This document shows, one piece after another, positions 3,412 through 59,926 of a stretch of DNA of 64,000 nt; position 1 is the first letter of the stretch, and each line of letters begins with the position of its first letter. This DNA is from Escherichia coli. Lineage in GTDB: Bacteria; Pseudomonadota; Gammaproteobacteria; Enterobacterales; Enterobacteriaceae. The DNA is taken from assembly GCF_044324875.1 (NCBI RefSeq), contig NZ_CP172185.1; one strand, given 5' to 3'. Both the position numbers and the translations under genes were made by a program. The notes beneath the pieces are model-generated. The model was given only the letters and a program-made list of their open reading frames with translations, did no database searches and was not told where the DNA came from.

Positions 3412-4646
3412 TTGCCAAAGGTCACCGCCATGGACGAAAGGTCCCTCTACGCTCATATTATCAACATGACCGCTCCATGGCAGGTTAAATATCTTTCTCT
3501 CGATGAAAACGCCGGTTCTGTTACCGTCACAGTTGGAATCGCTAAAAATGCCCGGTTAGCCTGTCCGACCTGCGGTAAATCCTGTTCTGTTCACGATCAC
3601 CGTCATCGTAAATGGCGTCATCTTGATATCTGCCAGTTCACCACTATTGTCGAAGCCGATGTGCCCCGCATTATGTGCCCGGAGCATGGCTGCCAGACGT
3701 TGCTAGTTCCCTGGGCTGGCCCCGGAAGGCGGTATACGCTGCTGTTCGACTCGTTCTCTCATGGCTGAAAATCAGCACTGTTGATGCTGTAAGGAAACAA
3801 CTTAAGCTCAGCTGGAATGCGGTTGACGGCATTATGACCCGGGCAGTTAAGCGAGGTCTTGCCCGGATAAAAAAGCCATTATCCGCCCGTCATATGAATG
3901 TGGATGAGGTCGCCTTTAAAAAAGGACATTGTTATATAACTGTGATCTCCGATCGCGATGGTCGTGCACTGGCCTTAACGGACGATCGTGGCACAGAGAG
4001 CCTCGCCGGCTATCTTCGCACGCTTACTGACGGGCAGTTGCTGGCTATCAAAACGCTCTCAATGGACATGAATGCAGGCTGTATAAGAGCAGCGCGTATC
4101 CACTTACCCTGTGCGGTTGAGAAAATCGCCTTCGACCGCTTCCATGTAGCAAAGCAACTTGGTGAAGTGGTTGATAAAATCCGTCAGGATGAACATCCAC
4201 ACCTCCCTGTTGAAAGTCGGCGTCAGGCAAAGGGGACCCGCTTCCTGTGGCAGTACAACGATAAATGGATGACCGAATCCAGGCAGGAAAAGCTGATATG
4301 GCTGCGTGCACAGATGAAGCTGACAAGCCTGTGCTGGGCGCTGAAAGAGCTGGCAAAGAATATCTGGAACAGGCCATGAAGTGAGGAAAGACGTAATGAG
4401 TGGGAGAGATTGCTGGCTCTGGCGGCCAACAGTGACATTACTATGATGAAAAACGCCACGAAAACGATAGGAAAAAGGCTGTATGGGATCCTGAATGCCA
4501 TGCGACACCGTGTCTCAAACGGAAACGCGGAGGCGCTTAACAGTAAGCTCAGGCTGCTGAGGATAAAAGCTAGGGGATACCGCAATCGGGAACGCTTTAA
4601 GCTGGGCGTGATGTTCCACTACGGGAAACTGAATATGGCGTTTTGA
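3412..4646 (+). pseudogene. ISL3-family transposase, split into three frames
   Basis: ORFs 3412..3768, 3675..4379, 4410..4646 together give N-terminal zinc finger (CPTCGK...CPEHGC), DDE core (MNVDEVAFKKGHCYITVISD...DRFHVAKQL) and typical C-terminus. Confidence 0.8.
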
Positions 4647-4710
4647 GCCTTCCCACCATGATCAGGGAAGGCCCTTATATCAACATACCTTTGTTTCCAA
4701 AGAATTCCTG

Positions 4711-6912
4711 TCAGAATAATACTGAGTAACTCAGACCAAAGGTGCGGCCCCTGCCTTTGTAGCCGTACAGTGAAGCAGGGCCGTAACCCGGGCTGTAGTA
4801 CAGTGGCGCACGCTGCCCCCAGACAGTGGTGTAGTCACGGTCGAAGAGGTTTTCAATGCTGAAGCTGAGTGTACCCACCGGAAGCTGATAACTGCCAAGC
4901 AAATCGACGATGGTATAGCCATCGACCTTGTAGCCCTGCGCGTCGCTCACGTCAAAGGAGGTGGTGCTCTGCACTCGCAGACTCCACGGGTCCGGTGCCC
5001 AGCCAATGTAGGCTGTCGCTTTTGATGGGCTTGCTGTCTTCACATCGTATTTCTGCCAGGTACCGTTCACTTTCGACTCAGTTTTCAGCACGTTGAAGTT
5101 CACTCCGGTACTCCAGTCAGTATCAGGAATCAGGTAGTCCACCGCACCTTCCACGCCGTAAATACGGCGTTTGTCGTCCACCACACTGATGGTCAGATCT
5201 TTATTCGCCACCACGCTCTTATCAGAAATCGAATAGTAGGCCGCGATTTGGGTGCGCAGATTATTGCCAGTAAAGCGCCAGCCCAGCTCATAAGAATCGA
5301 CTTTCACGCCTTCCAGCTTGCTGTCGCTGACGTTCACACTCTTTGTTAGAGGAAGATGGCCGTTCACTGCAGCACCATAGATGCCGCGACCATAGTATTT
5401 ACCCGGGTCCGGCAGCTCCACGCCCTGGGAGAAGTTGAGCCATGCCTGCTGGCGTTCGGTGATATGCATCAGCAGACCAGCGTTGAACAGGAAGTTGTCG
5501 TAATCGACTGAGCCGCCAGGAATGGCGTCGGCGGATGTAGCCTTCCCGGCGGCAATCTGCCGTTGCTGCGCGTAGCCGATGAAATCATCAATCTTGTTTT
5601 CAGTGTACTGATAGCGTACGCCACCGTTGAGGGTAAAGAGATTATTGATGTCATAGCCTGATTGCAGGAAGACCGCCAGGTTGGTGATGTCATACGACGG
5701 ATAGCGCCCGGTGGTGTAAATCTTCTTGTTGTTCAGCCCTCCGGAAGCGCTTGCTTGAGCCAGGTCGAAGAACATCTGGTTGGAGGTAAAGCGCTCATGA
5801 TCAGCATCCAGCCCCCAGGTGATTTGCCAGCCGTCCATCGGTTTGCTGTTCAGAGTCAGTTTCATGCCGTACTGGTCGGTGTCCTGCTGTGACGAAGAGA
5901 AAGCCGTCACCTGTTTGTTCGCATTTACCGTCGGGAACGGGTAGAATCGCAACGACTCATCGCGGTAGTAAACCTGACCGACCAGCTCCTGTCCCAGGAA
6001 AGCGCTGTCAGAGTACTGCAGGCTGATCAAATGCCGCTCAGTGCCGGGAATACGGTCGGAATTCAGCCCGTTACTGACGAAGGGCGTGCTGGTCCCTCTG
6101 ATGGCAGAGAAGCCTTTCCCGAGATTAAGCCCGTAATCGTCGTCGCCCTGGCTTTTATAGTACTGTGTGATCAACTGAAGCTGCCGGGATTCATCGATGT
6201 TCAACGTTCCAGTTCCCATGATGTCCAGCCGATCGGAGTACTGCAGGCCGGTCTGGGTGTTATCAAGCAGGGTGGCATCGCCGTTACCGTCAAACCAGCC
6301 GCCAAATTTCTGATATGCCACGGAAAGACGTCCGGAGATATGCTCATTTCCGCCGGAGACAGCTCCGGCAATGCGTTCATCGTGATCTTTACTGCTGCTA
6401 AAGCCACTTTTGGTGCCAGCCTCAAACTCCTTCATGGTTTCCGGCTGGCCTTTTTTGCTCACGATGTTGATCAGGCCACCGGTACTGCCGCCGCCATACA
6501 GGGACGTCGCACCGGAGATCACTTCAATATGGTCGATATTAAAAGGATCTATAGAGTCCAGTTGTCGGCTGTCGGTACGTGAAGAGTTGAGACGCACGCC
6601 GTCAACCAGCACGACCAGCGGGCGGCCACGCACATTCATACCGTAGTTGGTGCGGCTCCGGCTGCTGACGTCAAGGCCAGGGATCAGCTGAGCCAGTGCG
6701 TCCTTAAGCTCTTTGCCGCCCTGAATCTGCTGTTCCAGTTCGGCGTTTTCGATAACCCAGGTGGTTTGTGCCATCTCCGCTACGGTGCGATTGCTGCGGT
6801 TGGCAGACACCACGAACGTTTCATCATCGGTTTGTTGAGCGACTGCTGGCGCCATCATGGTAAGAAGCAGTGGGTTGAGAGCCCAAAGCGTATACTTTTT
6901 GCTTATCATCAT
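4711..6912 (-). CDS. iutA: IutA, TonB-dependent ferric aerobactin receptor
   Basis: 733 aa with signal peptide, TonB box region, plug and beta-barrel ending in aromatic residue (…SYSVLF); sits immediately downstream of iucD. Confidence 0.93.
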   Translation of the reverse strand: MMISKKYTLWALNPLLLTMMAPAVAQQTDDETFVVSANRSNRTVAEMAQTTWVIENAELEQQIQGGKELKDALAQLIPGLDVSSRSRTNYGMNVRGRPLVVLVDGVRLNSSRTDSRQLDSIDPFNIDHIEVISGATSLYGGGSTGGLINIVSKKGQPETMKEFEAGTKSGFSSSKDHDERIAGAVSGGNEHISGRLSVAYQKFGGWFDGNGDATLLDNTQTGLQYSDRLDIMGTGTLNIDESRQLQLITQYYKSQGDDDYGLNLGKGFSAIRGTSTPFVSNGLNSDRIPGTERHLISLQYSDSAFLGQELVGQVYYRDESLRFYPFPTVNANKQVTAFSSSQQDTDQYGMKLTLNSKPMDGWQITWGLDADHERFTSNQMFFDLAQASASGGLNNKKIYTTGRYPSYDITNLAVFLQSGYDINNLFTLNGGVRYQYTENKIDDFIGYAQQRQIAAGKATSADAIPGGSVDYDNFLFNAGLLMHITERQQAWLNFSQGVELPDPGKYYGRGIYGAAVNGHLPLTKSVNVSDSKLEGVKVDSYELGWRFTGNNLRTQIAAYYSISDKSVVANKDLTISVVDDKRRIYGVEGAVDYLIPDTDWSTGVNFNVLKTESKVNGTWQKYDVKTASPSKATAYIGWAPDPWSLRVQSTTSFDVSDAQGYKVDGYTIVDLLGSYQLPVGTLSFSIENLFDRDYTTVWGQRAPLYYSPGYGPASLYGYKGRGRTFGLSYSVLF

Positions 6913-48790: not shown

Positions 48791-49117
48791 TCAGGGACGT
48801 GATGGCGTAAAGATAAATTGTCTCTTCACTCCCTGACGGGGACTATTCTTTTCAAATCTCCATTTCGCCATGGCCTTCACCACTTCATCACGAAACAAAT
48901 TATGAGGCTCTGAGCGGAGAAAAACGATCCGTGTCACAGTCCCGTCAGCACCAATATCGAACTTAACCTCAACCAGCCCCTTGATATAATTTGCTGCAGC
49001 ATATTCCGGATATCGTGGATACACCGTCACTAATTGCCGGGGCTCATCAGCTTTTTGCTGCGAGCATCCCACTGCCAGGGCAGATAACAGAAAAAGTAGT
49101 GAAAGGCGTCTTTTCAT
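48791..49117 (-). CDS. Lipoprotein with TonB C-terminal-like domain
   Basis: Signal peptide plus Cys (MKRRLSLLFLLSALAVGC); C-terminal 75 aa align motif-by-motif with the E. coli TonB C-terminal domain. Confidence 0.6.
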   Translation of the reverse strand: MKRRLSLLFLLSALAVGCSQQKADEPRQLVTVYPRYPEYAAANYIKGLVEVKFDIGADGTVTRIVFLRSEPHNLFRDEVVKAMAKWRFEKNSPRQGVKRQFIFTPSRP

Positions 49118-49548
49118 TTTTATTCCTACGGGTCTTATTCTGACAATATATCCTGTGTTCCAGACTGCCACATCACCACATCCTGTGCCATTATCTGACT
49201 CACATTACATACATCGCATCAGGATACAGTAGTAGCACTTTCTGTAATACAGCTTCCGGTTTCTTCCACCATCGCACCGGACAGGCGACTATGAGGGATA
49301 AACCCGCGAATCATTAACGCGGTAAAAACCCGGTGTACATCGTTTTTGATTATTCCCGCACACTCGCGCAGAAGGAGTTCCCCGTCGGGCTACGGTTTCT
49401 GTTCATACGGGAATACGGCGACTATATAGCGAATGATGTGTCAGGCTTGAATACCTTTATCCGTTAAAAGGGATATCAATTAAGTTATCCCGTACAGGGT
49501 ATAAGCCATTATCAAAGCCACTCTGTAGCGAATGGCTTTTGTAATGGA

Positions 49549-49998
49549 CTATTTAATTAGTGATGCTGCGTATTCGATTAGATATAACTTAGGTGCCAGC
49601 CAGATTTTTAACCATGTCATATTGGTTACTGCACAAATAATAAAAATCCCCCACATAGTCAAAACTCCAACCAATGGCACGATAAGAAGATTAATATCAC
49701 CTTTGCTATCCCAAACCATTGTCGGCCTGTATTTGGGATTTCCCTTCTCCCATGAATATCCTTCATCACCGATTTTACCTGTCTCAACTCTTTGGCACTG
49801 CTTCTTCATAAACCAGAAAACCAGAGGGATTGTTGAAATGGCTATTAATGTTTTAATCAGGCTATCAACCATATTCCATACCAGCAACTGATGAACAACA
49901 TCCGGAATCTGAGCCTGACTGAATGCAATGGCGGAATCAATTCCATCGCTGGCCTTCTTCAATAAATCAACAAGAATTTTATTTGCTTCTTCTTGCAT
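49549..49998 (-). CDS. Small inner-membrane protein encoded in AT-rich DNA (start at internal Met MQEEANKIL)
   Basis: Two or three predicted TM helices; sharp drop in GC at about 50000; upstream part of the 209-aa ORF is a different, GC-rich reading context. Confidence 0.45.
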   Translation of the reverse strand: MQEEANKILVDLLKKASDGIDSAIAFSQAQIPDVVHQLLVWNMVDSLIKTLIAISTIPLVFWFMKKQCQRVETGKIGDEGYSWEKGNPKYRPTMVWDSKGDINLLIVPLVGVLTMWGIFIICAVTNMTWLKIWLAPKLYLIEYAASLIK

Positions 49999-50174
49999 GT
50001 TTATATCCTGTAAGTTGTAAACCGGTTCGAACAAATAAGTTACCAAGAGAGACAAAGATACCGAGCAACCACGGTCGCACACGATGTTTATCGCAGTAAC
50101 CAGAACTGTCTGTGATTGTACCTGCGCATCCACGCTTACGGCAGGCACGTGGGATTCGTGATGGCATAAATACC

Positions 50175-50375
50175 TCACACCCTGTTCAGTTGAATGACGG
50201 GCTGATTCTCGATATGTTCTGCTGTCAGTCTGAAAGTCACAGTGACTGTTGGTGGCTCGCCTCCGCGTGACTCTGTCCTGGCGGAAAGCTGCCCCTCCAG
50301 TAACTCACCATTAACTGCAATCCCATACCCTGCGAAATGTTTACCGCGATAAAGTTTTGCCAGTTGGTAATTCAT
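50175..50375 (-). CDS. Hypothetical small protein
   Basis: 66 aa ORF translationally coupled (ATGA overlap) to the upstream small ORF. Confidence 0.4.
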   Translation of the reverse strand: MNYQLAKLYRGKHFAGYGIAVNGELLEGQLSARTESRGGEPPTVTVTFRLTAEHIENQPVIQLNRV

Positions 50376-50634: not shown

Positions 50635-51117
50635 CTACTTAATGCACTGAGTGCGGATATACTCCTGTGCCCCTTCCAGTTGCTTCTGCATCGTCATCAA
50701 CCGTTCTCTGAGGGTGAAATAATCCCGTTCAGCGGTGTCTGCCAGTCGGGGGCTGGTTGCATTATCCACGCTGGTGGGTCCGGTGGCTTCACGCACGGCT
50801 TCGGAGCAACTGGCATTGACCCGCAGGCGCTTACGGCCAGCGGCAACATCAGCGCGCAGAGTTTCATTTTCAGCTTTCGCATTGGCTAATTCTCTCGAGT
50901 ACTTTGCATCGAGCGCAGCAACATCACGCTGACGCTGCTGCATGTCAGTAATGGTGGCGGTCGCCTGCTTCAGTTCACTGACTTTTTTATCACGCTGTTC
51001 TTTGTAGGCTATGGCGTTATCACGGTAATGATTGACCGCCAACGACAGGCAGACGATGATGCAGATAACCAGAGCATAAATAATCGCGGCGACTCTGCTC
51101 ACTGATCTATCCCCCAA
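50635..51117 (-). CDS. Rz i-spanin
   Basis: 160 aa with N-terminal TM and coiled-coil; near-identical blocks to lambda Rz. Confidence 0.92.
50697..50882 (-). CDS. Rz1 o-spanin lipoprotein, embedded in Rz in +1 frame
   Basis: 61 aa with lipobox and proline-rich core (…[30 protein letters not shown]). Confidence 0.9.
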
Positions 51118-51632
51118 CAGGCTAATGCGCTTTCCTGGTCACGACGAATAACCTGTCCATAGCAGTTATTTGAACGTATGCGGCAATCGCGCCCACCATC
51201 TTTTATCCACCAGCGAATCGCCTCGCATGCGCCCTTACGATCACCGGCATTCAGCCGCTTATAAAACGTCGACGGGAAACACTTACCGGGGCCAATGTTA
51301 TAGGGACAGAATGACGCAATACCCGCTTTCTGTGCTTCGGTCAGTGGAACTTTAATATTGCGCTCCACCCATGCCAGCGCCTTATCACGCTCAATGGCAT
51401 TAACCTGAGCGCATTTTTCCTTCGACAGCTTCATTCCGGGAAAAACGTGTTTTCCATCCACCACCGTGGCACCGCGGCAGATGGTCCATATGCCAGAACC
51501 ATCGCGGTATGCCGTTGTGTGGTTACCCTCTTTTTCGTCCAGAAACTGATCAAGTATCTGAGGAGCAGATGCGCCAGCACCAATCAGCGCCAGAACGGCA
51601 GCCGACAGGCCGTATCTGATTTTTGCGTTCAT
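51099..51632 (-). CDS. SAR endolysin (phage 21-type lysozyme)
   Basis: 177 aa with weakly hydrophobic N-terminal signal-anchor ([16 protein letters not shown]) and lysozyme-like body. Confidence 0.85.
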
Positions 51633-51755: not shown

Positions 51756-52133
51756 ATGAACAGTAAAGAAAATTTGCGCAGTAGATTTTTGCAACTAATG
51801 ACAGAAAAAGTTAAATCAGCGCTACTTCCACTTATGGTGGATAATAACGAAGCAACGAGCAGCATCCTTGCAGACCCTTACGGTAAACTCTCGCATAAAA
51901 CGCTGGATATTATTATGAGTGCATTAACACCCCATATGCTTCAACACCTGAAACAAGATATTAACGCATGGGTGAATGAAGAATTGAGCCCCCCCTGTTC
52001 ATGGGACAGACATTATGCATGGCAGCAAAAAATGAGGATTTTCAATTCATTATCACTAAAGTTCAGAGAACCGAAACAGCGTCCCTTCCCTCTGGAATCA
52101 GACAAAAAACAACCTGATCCCACAGGCCCGTAA
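51756..52133 (+). CDS. Hypothetical protein inserted between holin and endolysin on the opposite strand
   Basis: 125 aa ORF with AT-rich upstream region and a downstream hairpin; no recognisable domain. Confidence 0.5.
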   Translation: MNSKENLRSRFLQLMTEKVKSALLPLMVDNNEATSSILADPYGKLSHKTLDIIMSALTPHMLQHLKQDINAWVNEELSPPCSWDRHYAWQQKMRIFNSLSLKFREPKQRPFPLESDKKQPDPTGP

Positions 52134-52289: not shown

Positions 52290-52562
52290 TCATATTTCTT
52301 TTGGTGCCTTTTTCGCAATCTCAGCCACAGCATGTGCCGTAGCCGGAACATTACCGGCATTAGTTCGTTCCAGAATTTCGAGCAATATGCGGGTTCGTTT
52401 TTCCTGCTCCCGTTTGTTAAGGCGATAAGTAAGAACGCCAAGAATGATACTGAACGCCACGCCGATAATAAATCCCCAATCCTGCAGTGACAGGCTGGCA
52501 AAGAACGCAACAAGTCCTGCGCTGCCGTATGCAGCGTTACTGTATCGTTCGTCCATTCTCAT
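52290..52562 (-). CDS. Holin (class II, phage 21 S-like)
   Basis: 90 aa with two TM segments and charged C-terminus, upstream of the endolysin. Confidence 0.7.
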   Translation of the reverse strand: MRMDERYSNAAYGSAGLVAFFASLSLQDWGFIIGVAFSIILGVLTYRLNKREQEKRTRILLEILERTNAGNVPATAHAVAEIAKKAPKEI

Positions 52563-52977
52563 AGTCCCTCACCTCCGCCATCCGACATTACGGACGGCAG
52601 CAAGTCAGAATCTCGTTATAAAAAAGCCGCACGAAGAGGCTGTTTGTTCAGGTATTTTATCCAGTGCGCCGTAAAACCCCGACCTTCAGGGTGTGGAGGA
52701 TGTCAACATCAATAACTGACATTCTGCCCAAAGCTCCCGAAGATTCCCTTTGCACAATTTCACTGACCGGATCTCAGCACAAGCCACAGGGAATGGTCAG
52801 TGTGACGCTCTCTGTGGCCCCTCCTGAAAAGCCCTGTGGTTTAATCGCGACGGACCTGGCGCGGATATGAAGCAGGCCGTGAGCACGAGCCTGGAAATTT
52901 AGTGCCGACTACCGGAATTGAAGTGGTGGCCTGATGGTTACAACTAAACTGTTCTGCCGACTGAGGTAAGTCGGCGC

Positions 52978-53054
52978 TGGACCGCCACCGGGGACTCGAA
53001 CCCCGCACAGTCAGCTTAGAAGGCTGATGCTCTCTCATGATGAGCTAGTGGCGG
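52978..53054 (-). tRNA. tRNA-Arg (anticodon UCU)
   Basis: Folds by eye: 7-bp acceptor (CCGCCAC/GTGGCGG), D arm, anticodon loop CTTCTAA, T arm CGGGG-TTCGAGT-CCCCG. Confidence 0.7.
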
Positions 53055-53055
53055 T

Positions 53056-53131
53056 TGGTGGCCCTTGCTGGATTTGAACCAGCGACCTGGCGATTATGAG
53101 TCGCTCGCTCTCACCACTGAGCTAAAGGGCC
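53056..53131 (-). tRNA. tRNA-Ile2 (anticodon CAU), ileX/ileZ-like
   Basis: GGCCCTTTAGCTCAGTGGTGAGAGCGAGCGACTCATAATCGCCAGGTCGCTGGTTCAAATCCAGCAAGGGCCACCA; very close to E. coli ileX. Confidence 0.8.
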
Positions 53132-53253
53132 GTATGCGGAATAATACTTATGCCAGTTTTGCTCTGCAATACCCTTCCCTGATTAAATCCTGCATATTGG
53201 CCTACACATGGTAAAAGAATTTGAGCGGTCAACAGAAAATTACTCAGGCAATA

Positions 53254-53967
53254 TTAACGCACTCTGACTACATTAATTTCGAAGTCATCAATCTGCCCGC
53301 TATTAAGTATAACGAATGTAGAACTCCCATTACTGTACGATTTCGACAACACCAGCCTGTCATCATAGCGTGCAAGAACATAATACCAGACACTATCATA
53401 GTGGAGCATCTGATATTCCTTCTTAAACTGGGGTTTGTACCAACCGGCAATAAGTGAAAATCCCCAGAAATAGATCATGAATTCGACCATCATACACTCA
53501 ATCCAGTGATGACGAATAAAAGACATTTCCGAAAAACATTTGACTGAAATAAGTCTTCTTCCTGACCTGACAAAAACCGTAATTATTAAGGCAGCAATAA
53601 CGCATAAAACCAATGCATCTAGCGCAACGCGTCGATGAATTACTGAAAACTCCAGAGCAGGCGGAACAAAAAGCAACAATATCGCCAGAAAAAGTCTGAT
53701 AAAACTCAGATCCTGCACATTATTTTTTTGTTTGATCCCCAGGAAGAAAACAACACCGACTCCCCACCCAATCAGGAATATAACAATGACTGTAACGGCA
53801 TAAAAAAGGCTTCTGGCCACATCATCGACACCAGCCCCAACCACCCACCATGGGAAACCATAATAAAAGGATGTACCCCAGCCATAAAAGTAAGCGCTTC
53901 CCCACCCAAGACATCCCATATAAGCAACAAAAAGTGAAGAGTACCTGAGCAGAGTACTGTCATCCAT
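53254..53967 (-). CDS. Aromatic-rich polytopic membrane protein of unknown function (AT-rich cargo)
   Basis: 237 aa with several TM segments and soluble C-terminal domain; lies between Q-like gene and tRNAs. Confidence 0.55.
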   Translation of the reverse strand: MDDSTLLRYSSLFVAYMGCLGWGSAYFYGWGTSFYYGFPWWVVGAGVDDVARSLFYAVTVIVIFLIGWGVGVVFFLGIKQKNNVQDLSFIRLFLAILLLFVPPALEFSVIHRRVALDALVLCVIAALIITVFVRSGRRLISVKCFSEMSFIRHHWIECMMVEFMIYFWGFSLIAGWYKPQFKKEYQMLHYDSVWYYVLARYDDRLVLSKSYSNGSSTFVILNSGQIDDFEINVVRVR

Positions 53968-54103
53968 AGCAACACCATTAACAACTCAAAAACATAACAA
54001 TATATTGCATAACAAATGGAGCTCCATGTAGTCAAGAAGCTTCATAGCAGGAAAAACTCATAGCACAATAGCTATCACATTTAATGTTCTGTGTCTTTTT
54101 CAG

Positions 54104-54134
54104 GTATAAAAAAACCCACTCGGCGGCGGGTTTT
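54104..54134 (-). terminator. Intrinsic terminator downstream of the Q-like gene (candidate tR' of the late promoter)
   Basis: Minus strand AAAACCC-GCCGCCGAGU-GGGUUUU followed by a U-run. Confidence 0.5.
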
Positions 54135-54217
54135 GCTTGATTTGCCATTACGTACAAAATCGGCAGAATATCAAATTCACACGAAATATATGCCTTTTAA
54201 TCTACTTTTGCAATACT

Positions 54218-54892
54218 TTACTGTGAAAATGCCGCCTTTTGTTTTGAACGTGTTCTCGTCACAAACAATAAAGCCTCACTATCCAGCCGGTGAAAAATGT
54301 GTTTCATTGCAATCCAGTGACCAGTAAATGTTTTGGACCAGTTTTTGGCTGTCACTCCCGCCAGTAATGCCAGATCCTGGTATTCGTAACCTTCCTTACC
54401 AAAAATTTCTGCTTTTACTGCCTGCGCCGCCAGCCAGATTAATTTTTTCAGGCGTTCCCGTGTTTTCTCTGCAATTTTCCTGTTGCCACAATGGGCCTTA
54501 AACTCTTCCCATGCCCAGTGGGTTATAGTGACCTGATACTCCCAGCAAATACTCCCGCTGTAACACCACAACAACCAGGCTTTCTGATGTTCTTCAATAG
54601 ACAGAACCGCCCGCCGCCATGATGATGTCGAAAACTCAACCGGGCTGACCAGGGCAATTGATGAGCCTTTCGCCAGCGATTGTTTTCCCGGGATTGGTGG
54701 ATTATCCCGCGTTATCATTTTTCCAGTCACTTCATCGCGGTACCGGATTTTTTTACGCCTGTAACGCCCTGTATCGAACATGGCATTCTCCTGCCAGGCT
54801 TCAAGCTGACCTTTTGTTGCCCCACTCAAATCAGCGGTGGCGATAATGAGCTGCTCACGCACAAACTGTAAATACTGGTTATTCATGCGCAC
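54218..54892 (-). CDS. Late-gene antiterminator Q-like protein (Qin QuuQ-type)
   Basis: 224 aa directly downstream of rusA and upstream of the terminator/lysis region; call is by position and size. Confidence 0.5.
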   Translation of the reverse strand: MRMNNQYLQFVREQLIIATADLSGATKGQLEAWQENAMFDTGRYRRKKIRYRDEVTGKMITRDNPPIPGKQSLAKGSSIALVSPVEFSTSSWRRAVLSIEEHQKAWLLWCYSGSICWEYQVTITHWAWEEFKAHCGNRKIAEKTRERLKKLIWLAAQAVKAEIFGKEGYEYQDLALLAGVTAKNWSKTFTGHWIAMKHIFHRLDSEALLFVTRTRSKQKAAFSQ

Positions 54893-55248
54893 TCCAGTTC
54901 TGTGATTTTTATCCCCAGCCGCCCACCAGGAACGGGCTGACCGCGCACAATATTAATTTCATCAAACTGCTCGTCGTCTATGAATAGTCCGGCATGCGTC
55001 AGTGCATCCAGTGGTGCCTTCAGGATATTGTCCAGGTCGCGGCGGCGCTTATCCGGTGGCTCTGCAATAATTTTTATTGCCAGCCTTCCGGACAGGTTTA
55101 ATTTCAACCGCTGTTGGCGAACAATTAACGCCACATCCCGGCGATAACGTTCACCGACTTTTGATACAAAATATGTGCTGCCACGACGTCGCCAGTAAGT
55201 ATTCACCGTTGGCGGGTAAGGCAAAACAAATTCTATGTGTTCAGTCAT
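54883..55248 (-). CDS. rusA: RusA Holliday-junction resolvase
   Basis: 121 aa; RRRDLDN motif and overall match to RusA. Confidence 0.85.
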   Translation of the reverse strand: MTEHIEFVLPYPPTVNTYWRRRGSTYFVSKVGERYRRDVALIVRQQRLKLNLSGRLAIKIIAEPPDKRRRDLDNILKAPLDALTHAGLFIDDEQFDEINIVRGQPVPGGRLGIKITELECA

Positions 55249-56397
55249 TTATGCATTCCACTTCAGGACGCCCGAATTTTTCGCGTGCATTAAAAAACAA
55301 ATCAACAACAACAGCTGGCTGCCGTGTTTTTCTTCAAATTCTTTTACCCCGGCATGCAGTTCGTTGTGGCATTTACGACACAGCGGAATAACAAATAAAT
55401 CGTCAGCCTTTGTTCCCATCCCTCCCAGTCCATGACCAATGATGTGATGCGGATCATCTGCCTGATTGCCACACGTCATGCATTTCTGCGTTTTTACCCA
55501 GCGCGTGTATACGGGCATCTCTTCCCGTTGTGGTTTCTGGCGCCGGAGATACTGAGCCGGAGAATCGGGATCAACGGTAAGGGTGACCACCTTATTTTCC
55601 TGTGGTCGGTTCTGTTGCTGGTGGGTCGGCAGCACAAGATTTTTTGTGCGCTGTTTCAGTATGCTGGTGGCGGTCTTTTCTCCTGGTATGATGTCGCTTT
55701 CGCGGTATACAGAGCGTATTTTTTCCGCAGGTAATCCCATCGAACGACTCAATACTGTCTCGGGTAGTGCATCCGTCACCTGATTGCACACCGCCCACCA
55801 GCATAATTCAGCCAGCGATAATTCCCGCTCCTGCGTGCCGTTCATTGCATGGCGTATGACGTCAATCATCCATTCTGCCTGGTTTTGTTGAGCAAGTTGC
55901 TCAAGTGATTCGGATGTCTGGTCACGCAGCTGGTTGTCGCAGTGCCAGCACAACACCATCGCTCCGGTACCGTAACGATGTATGACGGTTTCACTGTGAT
56001 GATAGTCACCATGAGGCCACTGGCAGGATTTGACATGACGCAACAGCCAGTCAGACAGTGCACCAGCGCCGCCGGCAGCACGAATCACACGCTCATTGCT
56101 GAAAAATGGGAGTAATGATTTATCTTCCGCCAACGGCTGGCGAACGGCAGGAACGACTCCGGACGGCAGACCGCGCATGCTTTTCGGTTCAGGCTCCACC
56201 AGCACACGCCCCTGCATAAACAAAGGCATCGCATCAGGACCGGGTCTGAAAAGTACAATCCCCAGACGGTGAGCAATTTCAGGTGTCACTAATACCCTCA
56301 CGTTACCTCCAGATCCGTTGCTGGTACGTGCGGGATGGACGCGGTGGGCGTTCGGAATAAGGGAGCCTGACGGAGATGATCCAGTACAGGCGGTCAA
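55249..56397 (-). CDS. DUF968-type protein with C-terminal HNH-like zinc motif (YdfU-like); start uncertain
   Basis: C-terminal CxxC...HHIIGHGLGGMGTKADDLFVIPLCRKCHNELH. Confidence 0.6.
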   Translation of the reverse strand: MTACTGSSPSGSLIPNAHRVHPARTSNGSGGNVRVLVTPEIAHRLGIVLFRPGPDAMPLFMQGRVLVEPEPKSMRGLPSGVVPAVRQPLAEDKSLLPFFSNERVIRAAGGAGALSDWLLRHVKSCQWPHGDYHHSETVIHRYGTGAMVLCWHCDNQLRDQTSESLEQLAQQNQAEWMIDVIRHAMNGTQERELSLAELCWWAVCNQVTDALPETVLSRSMGLPAEKIRSVYRESDIIPGEKTATSILKQRTKNLVLPTHQQQNRPQENKVVTLTVDPDSPAQYLRRQKPQREEMPVYTRWVKTQKCMTCGNQADDPHHIIGHGLGGMGTKADDLFVIPLCRKCHNELHAGVKEFEEKHGSQLLLLICFLMHAKNSGVLKWNA

Positions 56398-56635: not shown

Positions 56636-56716
56636 TATTGTCTCTGATTTCTGTTGTCGTCAACAGGCAGCGTGCTATCATCGAATGGTGTTCTATCCTA
56701 CTCCGTGAGGTTTACC

Positions 56717-56974
56717 ATGCGTACAACCCAACAATTCAGTATTACATTAACTAACGAGATGGCTGACATGGTGCGCTCCCGTGTGGCTTCCGGTGCCTAT
56801 GCTTCAGAAAGCGAGGTCATTCGTGAAGGGCTTCGCGCACTGAATGAGCGCGATAAAGCAATCGAAGCGTGGTTAACGCATTCAGTCGCCCCCTCTCTTG
56901 ATTCTATCCGCGAAAACCCAAACAACGGACGCTCCATTTCACAGGTTCGCGCCGCGATTAGATCCGGGAAGTAG
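56717..56974 (+). CDS. ParD-like type II antitoxin (ribbon-helix-helix)
   Basis: Start at internal Met (MRTTQQFSITLTNEMADMVRSRVASGAYASESEVIREGLRAL); 6 bp before the toxin gene. Confidence 0.7.
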   Translation: MRTTQQFSITLTNEMADMVRSRVASGAYASESEVIREGLRALNERDKAIEAWLTHSVAPSLDSIRENPNNGRSISQVRAAIRSGK

Positions 56975-56979
56975 TCTGC

Positions 56980-57279
56980 ATGACATTTGAAGTCATCATT
57001 ACCCCCGAGGCCGAACAGCAGATAATAAACCTGCACAGATATATAACGGAGAAAGCAGGAGGCGTCATTGCTGACAATTATGCCAATGCGCTTCTTGATT
57101 ATCTTGATGGGTTTTCTGCATTTCCGCATCGGGGCAATAAACGCGATGATATTCGCCAGGGGATGCGGGTAACTCATTTCCGCCACAGAACGATTATTGC
57201 TTTTGCCGTTGATGACAATAAAGTCTTTATCGCAGGTGTTTATCATGGCGGACAAAGTTATGAAACCGATTTCTTATAA
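56980..57279 (+). CDS. ParE/RelE-family toxin
   Basis: 99 aa basic protein immediately downstream of the antitoxin. Confidence 0.7.
   Translation: MTFEVIITPEAEQQIINLHRYITEKAGGVIADNYANALLDYLDGFSAFPHRGNKRDDIRQGMRVTHFRHRTIIAFAVDDNKVFIAGVYHGGQSYETDFL

Positions 57280-57483: not shown

Positions 57484-59926
<2,443 letters not shown>

Follow-up and report, generated by a model that had tools for sequence, protein, structure and literature searches.

What kind of gene does a prophage of Escherichia coli carry directly behind its late antiterminator Q, and does this gene occupy the place in which Shiga toxin (Stx) phages hold the toxin genes? Both questions are raised by an open reading frame (ORF) at positions 53254..53967 on the minus strand of a 64,000-nucleotide stretch of E. 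coli DNA (contig NZ_CP172185.1 of assembly GCF_044324875.1), which we refer to as the window. In the ORF list it starts with ATG and spans 714 nt, encoding 237 aa. An earlier note, made from the sequence alone, had described the product as an aromatic-rich polytopic membrane protein in AT-rich DNA and had placed the gene at the position of stx. The description is accurate: Phenylalanine, tryptophan and tyrosine make up 19% of the residues, several long hydrophobic stretches mark the protein as polytopic, and the GC content is 0.36–0.45 over positions 53200–54250 against ~0.50–0.56 in the flanks on both sides. The placement is not: As set out below, the ORF almost certainly belongs to the TfpB/STM1630 family and leads the late operon as cargo in a slot of its own, beside that of stx.

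The family assignment comes from profile searches as well as from pairwise comparisons. Residues 17–237 of the product match PHROG 1521 with an E-value of 5.3e-89, and all four PHROG hits of the protein are of the unknown-function class. The Pfam entry PF27470, named TfpB, is precomputed on a 99%-identical database protein (P0001) and on every homologue listed, and RefSeq gives the copy in one recent record the name "STM1630 family protein". The family is already catalogued in Pfam, PHROG and RefSeq, and a near-identical protein is present in RefSeq as "hypothetical protein", which is also the label of the same 714-nt coding sequence in near-identical genomes; these genomes share 99.6–99.8% identity over a 1.4-kb region, and many are chicken isolates. 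A Pfam-A scan that lacked the PF27470 model returned only a chance hit to Cerato-platanin (E 0.31), and NCBIfam release 20, which holds no model of this family, gave no hit to the ORF product. Searches run with the product brought up no match to a housekeeping or phage structural family.

Three groups of relatives deserve closer comparison. The "putative membrane protein" CPT_434_68 of phage 434 and gp58 of phage 2B8 are 59% identical to the product, and a prophage gene of EDL933 (O157:H7; WP_001302581.1) is a relative whose context is that of phage 434. As in the window, the gene in these three elements sits directly after a Q82-type Q and a terminator, and a conserved island upstream of the gene is shared. 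In these elements, however, no tRNAs follow; instead, the next genes are those of a DUF3927 (TciB-like) protein, a small membrane protein and a SASA/nanS-p esterase, and in the two phages a pinholin succeeds the SASA esterase. TciB (DUF3927) was considered as an operon-named pair with the family gene and dropped: Among the papers listed for TciA/TciB, the phage-related ones concern P1-like and D6-like phage-plasmids, and tciA and tciB are gene names of phage P1.

The second relative, STM1630 of Salmonella (database protein P0069), aligns with 47% identity at 100% coverage (E 1.4e-68). P0069 was equated with STM1630 by means of the published gene table (717 bp, beside sseJ) and of the deletion primer, which encodes NSSMLLAYLGGLGWG. 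STM1630 has 238 aa and the same architecture as the window protein, and its gene is likewise AT-rich, horizontally acquired and bound by H-NS. Yet it is a chromosomal gene that has steB and sseJ, both effector genes, as its neighbours and lacks phage genes in its surroundings; it has its own mapped promoter, and the gene is induced under conditions of Salmonella pathogenicity island 2 (SPI-2) and in macrophages. The window gene, by contrast, follows Q in a late region that looks complete, and the upstream DNAs of the two are not homologous. The third relative, TfpB of Moraxella bovis, aligns end to end (27% identity over 235 residues, BLASTP E 3e-23, hhalign 99.6%). A DNA-motif scan of one genome per species matched M. 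bovis, M. lacunata, M. equi and M. oblonga: In M. bovis, a 261-aa tfpB ORF is placed between two inverted pilin 3' segments, and in M. lacunata tfpB is flanked on one side by a piv-like recombinase with a pilin fragment and on the other by a complete type IV pilin gene. TfpB of M. bovis and M. lacunata shares the motif YGWG-x5-G[FY]PWW and the C-terminal β domain with the window protein but is encoded in an invertible pilin cassette next to piv, whereas no pilin genes are near in the window. From this locus and from the older literature, we take the Pfam name to derive from the Moraxella ORF. No published function for Moraxella TfpB was found in the open literature, in which "TfpB" mostly denotes other things (an Acinetobacter motor ATPase, chemistry acronyms); literature on PF27470, the phage 434 genome paper, TciA/TciB and the Salmonella locus-tag synonyms yielded nothing useful.

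A search of 1.84 billion representatives with a hidden Markov model (HMM) resolved the family into 71 clusters at 50% identity, which range over Enterobacterales, Pasteurellaceae, Neisseriaceae and Moraxella only. By blastn, 1196 of 5426 complete E. coli genomes (~22%, including O157:H7 EDL933) contain a match, and 459 of these matches cover at least 80% of the gene; a family gene occurs in only 3 of the 50,697 phage records of INPHARED. With matches this common in E. coli and a copy in phage 434, the view that the ORF is an unusual gene is not supported.

Whether the gene takes the place of stx can be decided from the layout of the late region, which comprises, in the direction of transcription, the following features:

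55249-56397, minus strand: DUF968/HNH protein
54883-55248, minus strand: RusA
54218..54892, minus strand: late antiterminator Q of the Q82 type, directly upstream of the ORF (PHROG 304, E 9e-106)
54185..54213, minus strand: pR'-like late promoter, TTGCAA-17-TATATT (consensus scan)
54104..54134, minus strand: tR'-like intrinsic terminator with a 9-bp stem, a 6-nt loop and a U-run (sequence; minimum-free-energy fold)
54006..54035, minus strand: conserved non-coding island, TTGACT-N15-TGT-TATGCA, 70–40 nt upstream of the ATG
53254..53967, minus strand: ORF for the TfpB/STM1630-family inner-membrane protein (PHROG 1521; PF27470; AlphaFold2 model; ratio of nonsynonymous to synonymous substitution rates, dN/dS)
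53056..53131, minus strand: tRNA with anticodon CAT, ileZ-like tRNA-Ile2 (ARAGORN; Rfam tRNA 72.5 bits)
52978..53054, minus strand: argN-like tRNA-Arg (UCU) (ARAGORN; Rfam 53.8 bits)
52903..52975, minus strand: degenerate third tRNA, a Thr-like remnant (Rfam tRNA 19.8 bits, gathering score 29)
52563..52902, minus strand: positional equivalent of the stx slot, without a large ORF (ORF list against the layout of Stx2a_F349)
52290..52562, minus strand: holin, 90 aa (PHROG 1350 holin, E 3e-29)
51099..51632, minus strand: endolysin (lysozyme) (PHROG 7, E 5.5e-62; RefSeq "lysozyme")
50635..51117, minus strand: Rz-like spanin (PHROG 13, E 2e-76)

The order of a Q-like gene, a terminator, cargo, tRNA-Ile/tRNA-Arg and lysis genes, as read in the earlier note, is confirmed by PHROG, the hairpin and ARAGORN. 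The window Q is 76% identical to the Q82-like Q of phage 434 and is named "bacteriophage antitermination protein Q" in RefSeq; the tRNA with the CAT anticodon is labelled tRNA-Met by ARAGORN and tRNA-Ile by PGAP, and the tRNA pair shares 92.9% identity with ileZ-argN of Stx2 phages. Equally sound is the view of the ORF as non-core cargo that leads the late operon: It comes right after Q, pR' and tR' and points in the same direction as the late genes. What does not hold is that this order is the layout of an Stx phage. In Stx2a_F349, the genes follow one another as Q, ileZ, argN, argO, stx2A, stx2B, nanS-p and holin. Because stx thus comes after the tRNAs in the Stx2a phage and the ORF before them, the ORF is upstream of the interval between ileZ-argN(-argO) and the nanS-p/lysis genes and hence outside the stx slot, which itself stands empty in the window.

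Nor is the gene an alternative to stx. A scan of IMG/VR found 181 viral contigs that encode a relative, and 80 loci were fetched, annotated with reference proteins and ARAGORN, and compared. Two of them, L028 and L058, hold the gene together with stx2AB (97–99% identity to Stx2A): L028 reads RusA, a zinc-finger-type Q, the gene (4001–4714), ileZ, argN and argO (4837–5086), stx2A (from 5142/5178) and stx2B, while L058 reads a Q82-type Q, the gene, a gap, ileZ-argN-argO (5962–6213), stx2AB (98.7% identity to Stx2A) and a holin. In a third, L077, an stx1-like operon (54–56% identity to Stx2A/B) is followed within 240 bp after stxB by the gene and then by a lysozyme. The idea that the cargo occupies the stx position is contradicted by these orthologues, which co-exist with stx. 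L077 (IMG/VR contig 2859677112_000002) has no tRNAs, and its family gene is 71% identical to that of the window; because a database protein that is likewise 71% identical to the window's (P0026) stems from Enterobacter cloacae, this locus may be an Enterobacter Stx1-type prophage.

Across the 80 loci, the upstream gene is a Q82-family Q in 47, the next downstream feature is tRNA-Ile2 in 32 and a DUF3927 (TciB-like) gene in 17, and the lysis cassettes further downstream are of at least three types. The comparison of related prophages that the earlier note had proposed thus bears out a cargo slot and not an stx slot: The gene marks a separate slot at the head of the late operon, beside that of stx. 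Like stx, it is non-essential cargo between Q/pR'/tR' and the lysis genes for which transcription with the late operon is expected; unlike stx2, which follows ileZ-argN(-argO), it precedes these tRNAs, and its product is a membrane protein, whereas Shiga toxin is secreted. In some Stx2 prophages, the gene would be expected on the same Q-dependent transcript as the toxin.

A gene that is annotated merely as "hypothetical" and has many truncated copies in databases and in islands of the uropathogenic E. coli (UPEC) type could be a decaying or selfish ORF without function. We give this reading next to no chance, as it is contradicted by the analysis of selection. The ORF is intact at 237/238 codons in 79 of the 80 IMG/VR loci. 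Relative to the window allele, dN/dS is ~0.15 overall (0.12–0.23 in pairwise comparisons, with dS up to 1.45), and its regional median is 0.03 for residues 1–60 and ~0.21–0.22 for the remainder; moreover, the architecture is kept down to 15–25% identity. The ORF is a real gene under strong purifying selection, far beyond chance. The strong conservation of the N-terminus further implies that the annotated start is real, and not Met17, where the PHROG profile begins.

What is it, then, that selection maintains? An AlphaFold2 model of the product, with a predicted local distance difference test (pLDDT) score of 73.5, contains helices at residues 3–36, 47–78, 89–111, 116–135 and 155–181 and five strands within residues 184–235; when the C-terminal 60 residues are modelled alone, five strands are again obtained (pLDDT 85.3). 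The orientation in the membrane was deduced from the distribution of lysine and arginine: Averaged over 23 diverse members, the N-terminus, loop 2 and loop 4 contain 1.7, 2.5 and 3.5 of these residues, compared with 0.3 in loop 1 and 0.4 in loop 3, which by the positive-inside rule places the N-terminus inside, the C-terminus outside and the β domain in the periplasm. The predicted topology is an N-in protein with five transmembrane helices and a small periplasmic β-barrel of 55 residues. Paired cysteines in the β4-β5 hairpin of four members fit a periplasmic C-terminal domain. Remote homology and topology prediction, which the earlier note had suggested as a check, accordingly lead to the TfpB/STM1630 family and to five transmembrane helices, bearing out a membrane protein.

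At the periplasmic end of helix 1 lies the motif AY.YGWG-x5-G[F/Y]PWW, which in most members is followed by (I/V)ARSL; the pattern was found in 92 of the 99 loci collected. This motif is extremely conserved and would be the functional core. The window protein displays the complete architecture shared by the family, that is, ~240 aa, five hydrophobic helices, the motif and the C-terminal five-stranded domain. The alignment contains no aspartate, glutamate or histidine that is conserved family-wide, and for this reason binding rather than catalysis is the probable mode of action. A Foldseek search against AFDB50 retrieved family members with TM-scores of up to 0.90; the remote matches in this database are membrane proteins labelled "uncharacterized" or of the DUF1616 type, and no function is known for any of them. 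The searches run yielded no match of the product to a defence protein, a superinfection exclusion (Sie) protein, an enzyme or a solved fold.

As to expression, conservation of the tR'-like hairpin, in its stem as well as its T-run, extends over 53 unique upstream regions. From the Q stop codon to the hairpin, the sequence aligns with phage 434 and with avian pathogenic E. coli (APEC) O1, and in phage 434 a terminator is annotated at the place that matches the hairpin of the window; therefore, Q read-through from pR' is expected. It is a reasonable inference that the ORF is transcribed by such Q-dependent read-through on induction, in which case the gene would be part of the first late-operon message. 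A terminator sought between the tRNAs and the holin is unsupported (z-score +0.34). Between the hairpin and the ATG, the 30-nt island shows at least 95% column conservation in the 53 unique sequences, including 434-type alleles with 59% protein identity, and is more conserved than the intergenic DNA around it. Its sequence resembles a −35 element with an extended, imperfect −10 and may be the gene's own promoter or, alternatively, a binding site; as a promoter, this TTGACT...TGTTATG island may add Q-independent expression in the lysogen. On the opposite strand to the tR'-like hairpin, positions 54072-54142 (plus strand) give a sub-threshold match to the Rfam small RNA STnc370 (31.5 bits against a gathering score of 54, E 0.09), which is probably the hairpin read backwards.

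For the function of the protein, copies that have left the phage context are instructive. Salmonella enterica subspecies enterica, arizonae and diarizonae have an intact syntenic copy beside sseJ with no phage genes nearby, and in Citrobacter rodentium a copy beside lpxR occupies the same frmR/adhC neighbourhood. This frmR/adhC-trg site differs between the two genera in its left neighbour (sseJ in Salmonella, lpxR in C. rodentium), and lpxR is also the neighbour of Q in phage 434 and in several prophages. The site gives the impression of an old lambdoid prophage of which only the cargo remains. In Neisseria, Gallibacterium, Pasteurella and other relatives, single copies are found among housekeeping genes with no conserved neighbour. 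Genomes of Aggregatibacter actinomycetemcomitans have two family copies each. Escherichia-like copies are also present on two short contigs that were assigned to Veillonella and Lachnospiraceae, probably by mis-binning. A divergent Klebsiella subfamily is located between an SRAP gene and umuDC, near resolvase, reverse transcriptase (RT) and SASA genes; here the cargo character holds and the linkage to Q does not. A gene that is kept alone in chromosomes over the long term would serve the cell and need no phage partner. In phages, the family gene travels with cargo for host interaction: LpxR, nanS-p esterases, tRNAs and stx.

STM1630 of Salmonella, whose function is described as unknown, is bound by H-NS, and its expression has been observed both in SPI-2-inducing medium and inside macrophages; attenuation of signature-tagged mutants was seen in calves and in chickens, intramacrophage replication rose when the gene was deleted in strain 4/74, and the promoter is inactivated in ST313 (PMC6785131, Text S1). 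The gene was also listed among those co-regulated with SPI-2 (PMC2639726). These data likewise point, weakly, to a benefit for the host bacterium.

Taken together, the intact phage-free copies and the STM1630 data favour an envelope protein of the lysogenic-conversion type: We assign a probability of about 0.5 to the reading that the ORF product is an accessory envelope protein (a moron) which benefits the bacterial host by binding a membrane or periplasmic partner, and we would regard the naming of any specific partner as doubtful. N-in insertion would put the aromatic/glycine motif and the 55-residue small β-barrel on the periplasmic side, where the protein would act not by catalysis but by binding a membrane-embedded or periplasmic partner. 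The benefit would reach the bacterial host through an envelope or host-interaction phenotype and not through phage morphogenesis or lysis.

Several points weigh against this assignment. The STM1630 deletion was reported to be hypermotile (PMC4219756) and is absent from the mutants singled out for detail in the follow-up (PMC4534456), and growth in lysogeny broth (LB) is unaffected by the deletion in D23580 (PMC6785131, Text S1). The STM1630 phenotypes are modest and in part unreproduced, and with just 47% identity the role may not transfer to the window protein. In dozens of mosaic prophages the gene keeps a fixed place as the first of the late operon, which might just as well reflect a role in lytic growth. 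The contexts of the Moraxella member (in a pilin cassette) and of the Klebsiella subfamily (beside SRAP/umuDC with RT and resolvase) lead elsewhere. In addition, late transcription and the extra promoter are themselves inferred from sequence; the promoter scan did not flag the 30-nt island, whose putative −10 is poor.

How do other functions compare? One candidate is superinfection exclusion or anti-phage defence, in which the protein, made by the lysogen or late in infection, would block DNA entry or trigger membrane failure when a second phage infects. The AT-rich, moron-like character of this single prophage gene for a polytopic membrane protein fits such a role; the horizontal movement as a single gene, the conserved possible promoter that would permit expression in the lysogen and the location of the Klebsiella subfamily in a variable accessory region beside a resolvase, at one locus beside a reverse transcriptase, agree with this. 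Nevertheless, PADLOC-DB 2.0 gives no hit at E<=1, the hhalign probability is 0.4% against SieA and 0.2% against SieB of P22, the PHROG family is of the unknown-function class, and the stand-alone copies lie outside defence-gene neighbourhoods. The long vertical retention in Salmonella subspecies and the infection-model phenotypes fit host interaction at least as well, so that we consider exclusion possible but unlikely. Of the functions envisaged in the earlier note, exclusion and abortive infection thus gain nothing from PADLOC or from the P22 profiles, whereas virulence is compatible with the published STM1630 data. An accessory role in the lytic cycle, in which the first product of the late operon would tune holin/spanin action or the envelope before lysis, or would shield progeny from debris, draws on a position that most prophage loci keep unchanged, namely after Q/tR' and before the lysis cassette, on the co-orientation with the late genes with no strong terminator before the holin, and on the combination of a membrane protein with a periplasmic domain, as in spanins and antiholins. 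However, the gene is accompanied by at least three holin/endolysin types and by differing Q families and therefore has no co-evolving lysis partner; it is absent from most lambdoid phages, including lambda-like and most sequenced Stx phages, and intact copies exist in chromosomes without any lysis genes. As the product matches no holin, antiholin or spanin family and is not co-inherited with one cassette, we deem such a role improbable.

A proposal that starts from Moraxella fares no better. Moraxella, Neisseriaceae and Pasteurellaceae, in which the family is concentrated, are lineages that make type IV pili, and the gene of the name-giving member follows immediately after the expressed pilin gene within the pilin inversion cassette of Moraxella. 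The protein might accordingly be an accessory of pilins or pseudopilins that binds their membrane-anchored N-terminal helix (PpdD/HCP pilus, type II secretion system) and alters filament assembly. Its polytopic N-terminal part and periplasmic β domain recall the pilin-interacting TfpY/FimB-like proteins of Pseudomonas, Dichelobacter and Neisseria, which are of similar size and combine an N-terminal membrane part with a periplasmic, β-rich C-terminus and no catalytic motif (PMC11841053). Compared by description, though, TfpY-like proteins possess three transmembrane helices and a larger two-sheet domain (mixed β-sheet, helix, antiparallel sheet) instead of five helices and a 55-residue barrel, and they are always encoded beside a pilin gene (PMC11841053), which in the TfpB family is the case in Moraxella only and not at most loci: No pilin gene is near in the window or at the loci of Neisseria, Pasteurella, Gallibacterium and others. 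Truncated copies are present in M. lacunata, M. equi and M. oblonga, so the gene is unneeded for piliation there. The family HMM search detected no sequence relationship to TfpY/FimB-like proteins; among its 71 hits, those with a readable source include no Pseudomonas or Dichelobacter relatives. We regard a pilin accessory as a very unlikely candidate. In a bolder proposal, the family as a whole would be a new class of single-gene inner-membrane factors spread by phages, whose conserved aromatic periplasmic motif grips some universal partner anchored in the membrane (for example a pilin-like helix, a DNA-entry channel or a lipid-linked glycan) and thereby changes phage susceptibility or animal colonisation; we regard this as speculative and would not expect it to prove right.

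Some further observations concern the surroundings of the gene. The stretch 52903-52975 adjoins the tRNA-Arg, aligns to the tRNA-Thr of related phages and is called by neither ARAGORN nor PGAP; the array of phage tRNAs probably once included it as an intact member. The holin ORF (52290-52562) is labelled just "hypothetical protein" by RefSeq in a near-identical genome. Holin and endolysin are separated by 650 bp, which is unusual for a lysis cassette, and a 125-aa ORF lies antisense between them (51756-52133, plus strand); between the same two genes RefSeq notes an incomplete pseudogene in strain 135, with a span that differs from that ORF. On the 3' side of the lysis cassette, a gene for a small TonB-family protein (48791-49171, minus strand) and one for a PHROG 3054 protein of the function-unknown class (49549-50178, minus strand) are candidate cargo. 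Between the replication/nin region and DUF968, the opposite strand encodes a ParD-like antitoxin (106 aa) and a RelE/ParE-like toxin (99 aa) at 56654-57279 (plus strand), an annotation with which RefSeq agrees in strain 135. Two overlapping ORFs of 340 and 260 aa at 57999-59800 (plus strand) resemble istA/istB of the IS21 type (N-terminal helix-turn-helix; Walker-type GPSGVGKT); this pair is inserted in the early region of the prophage and has no counterpart in the matching stretch of the closest genome, that of strain 135.

Taken alone, the locus is ordinary; what is useful is the correction of the slot and the link within the family, by which tfpB of the Moraxella pilin switch, STM1630 of Salmonella and the gene after Q in lambdoid phages become one family. 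If the proposal of a phage-spread factor were true, three unconnected orphans (tfpB, STM1630 and the gene after Q) would be joined, and some Shiga toxin-producing E. coli would make such a factor from the same late transcript as Shiga toxin. In any case, it would be reasonable to study, by deletion and expression, a conserved envelope protein with matches in about one in five complete E. coli genomes, O157:H7 included.

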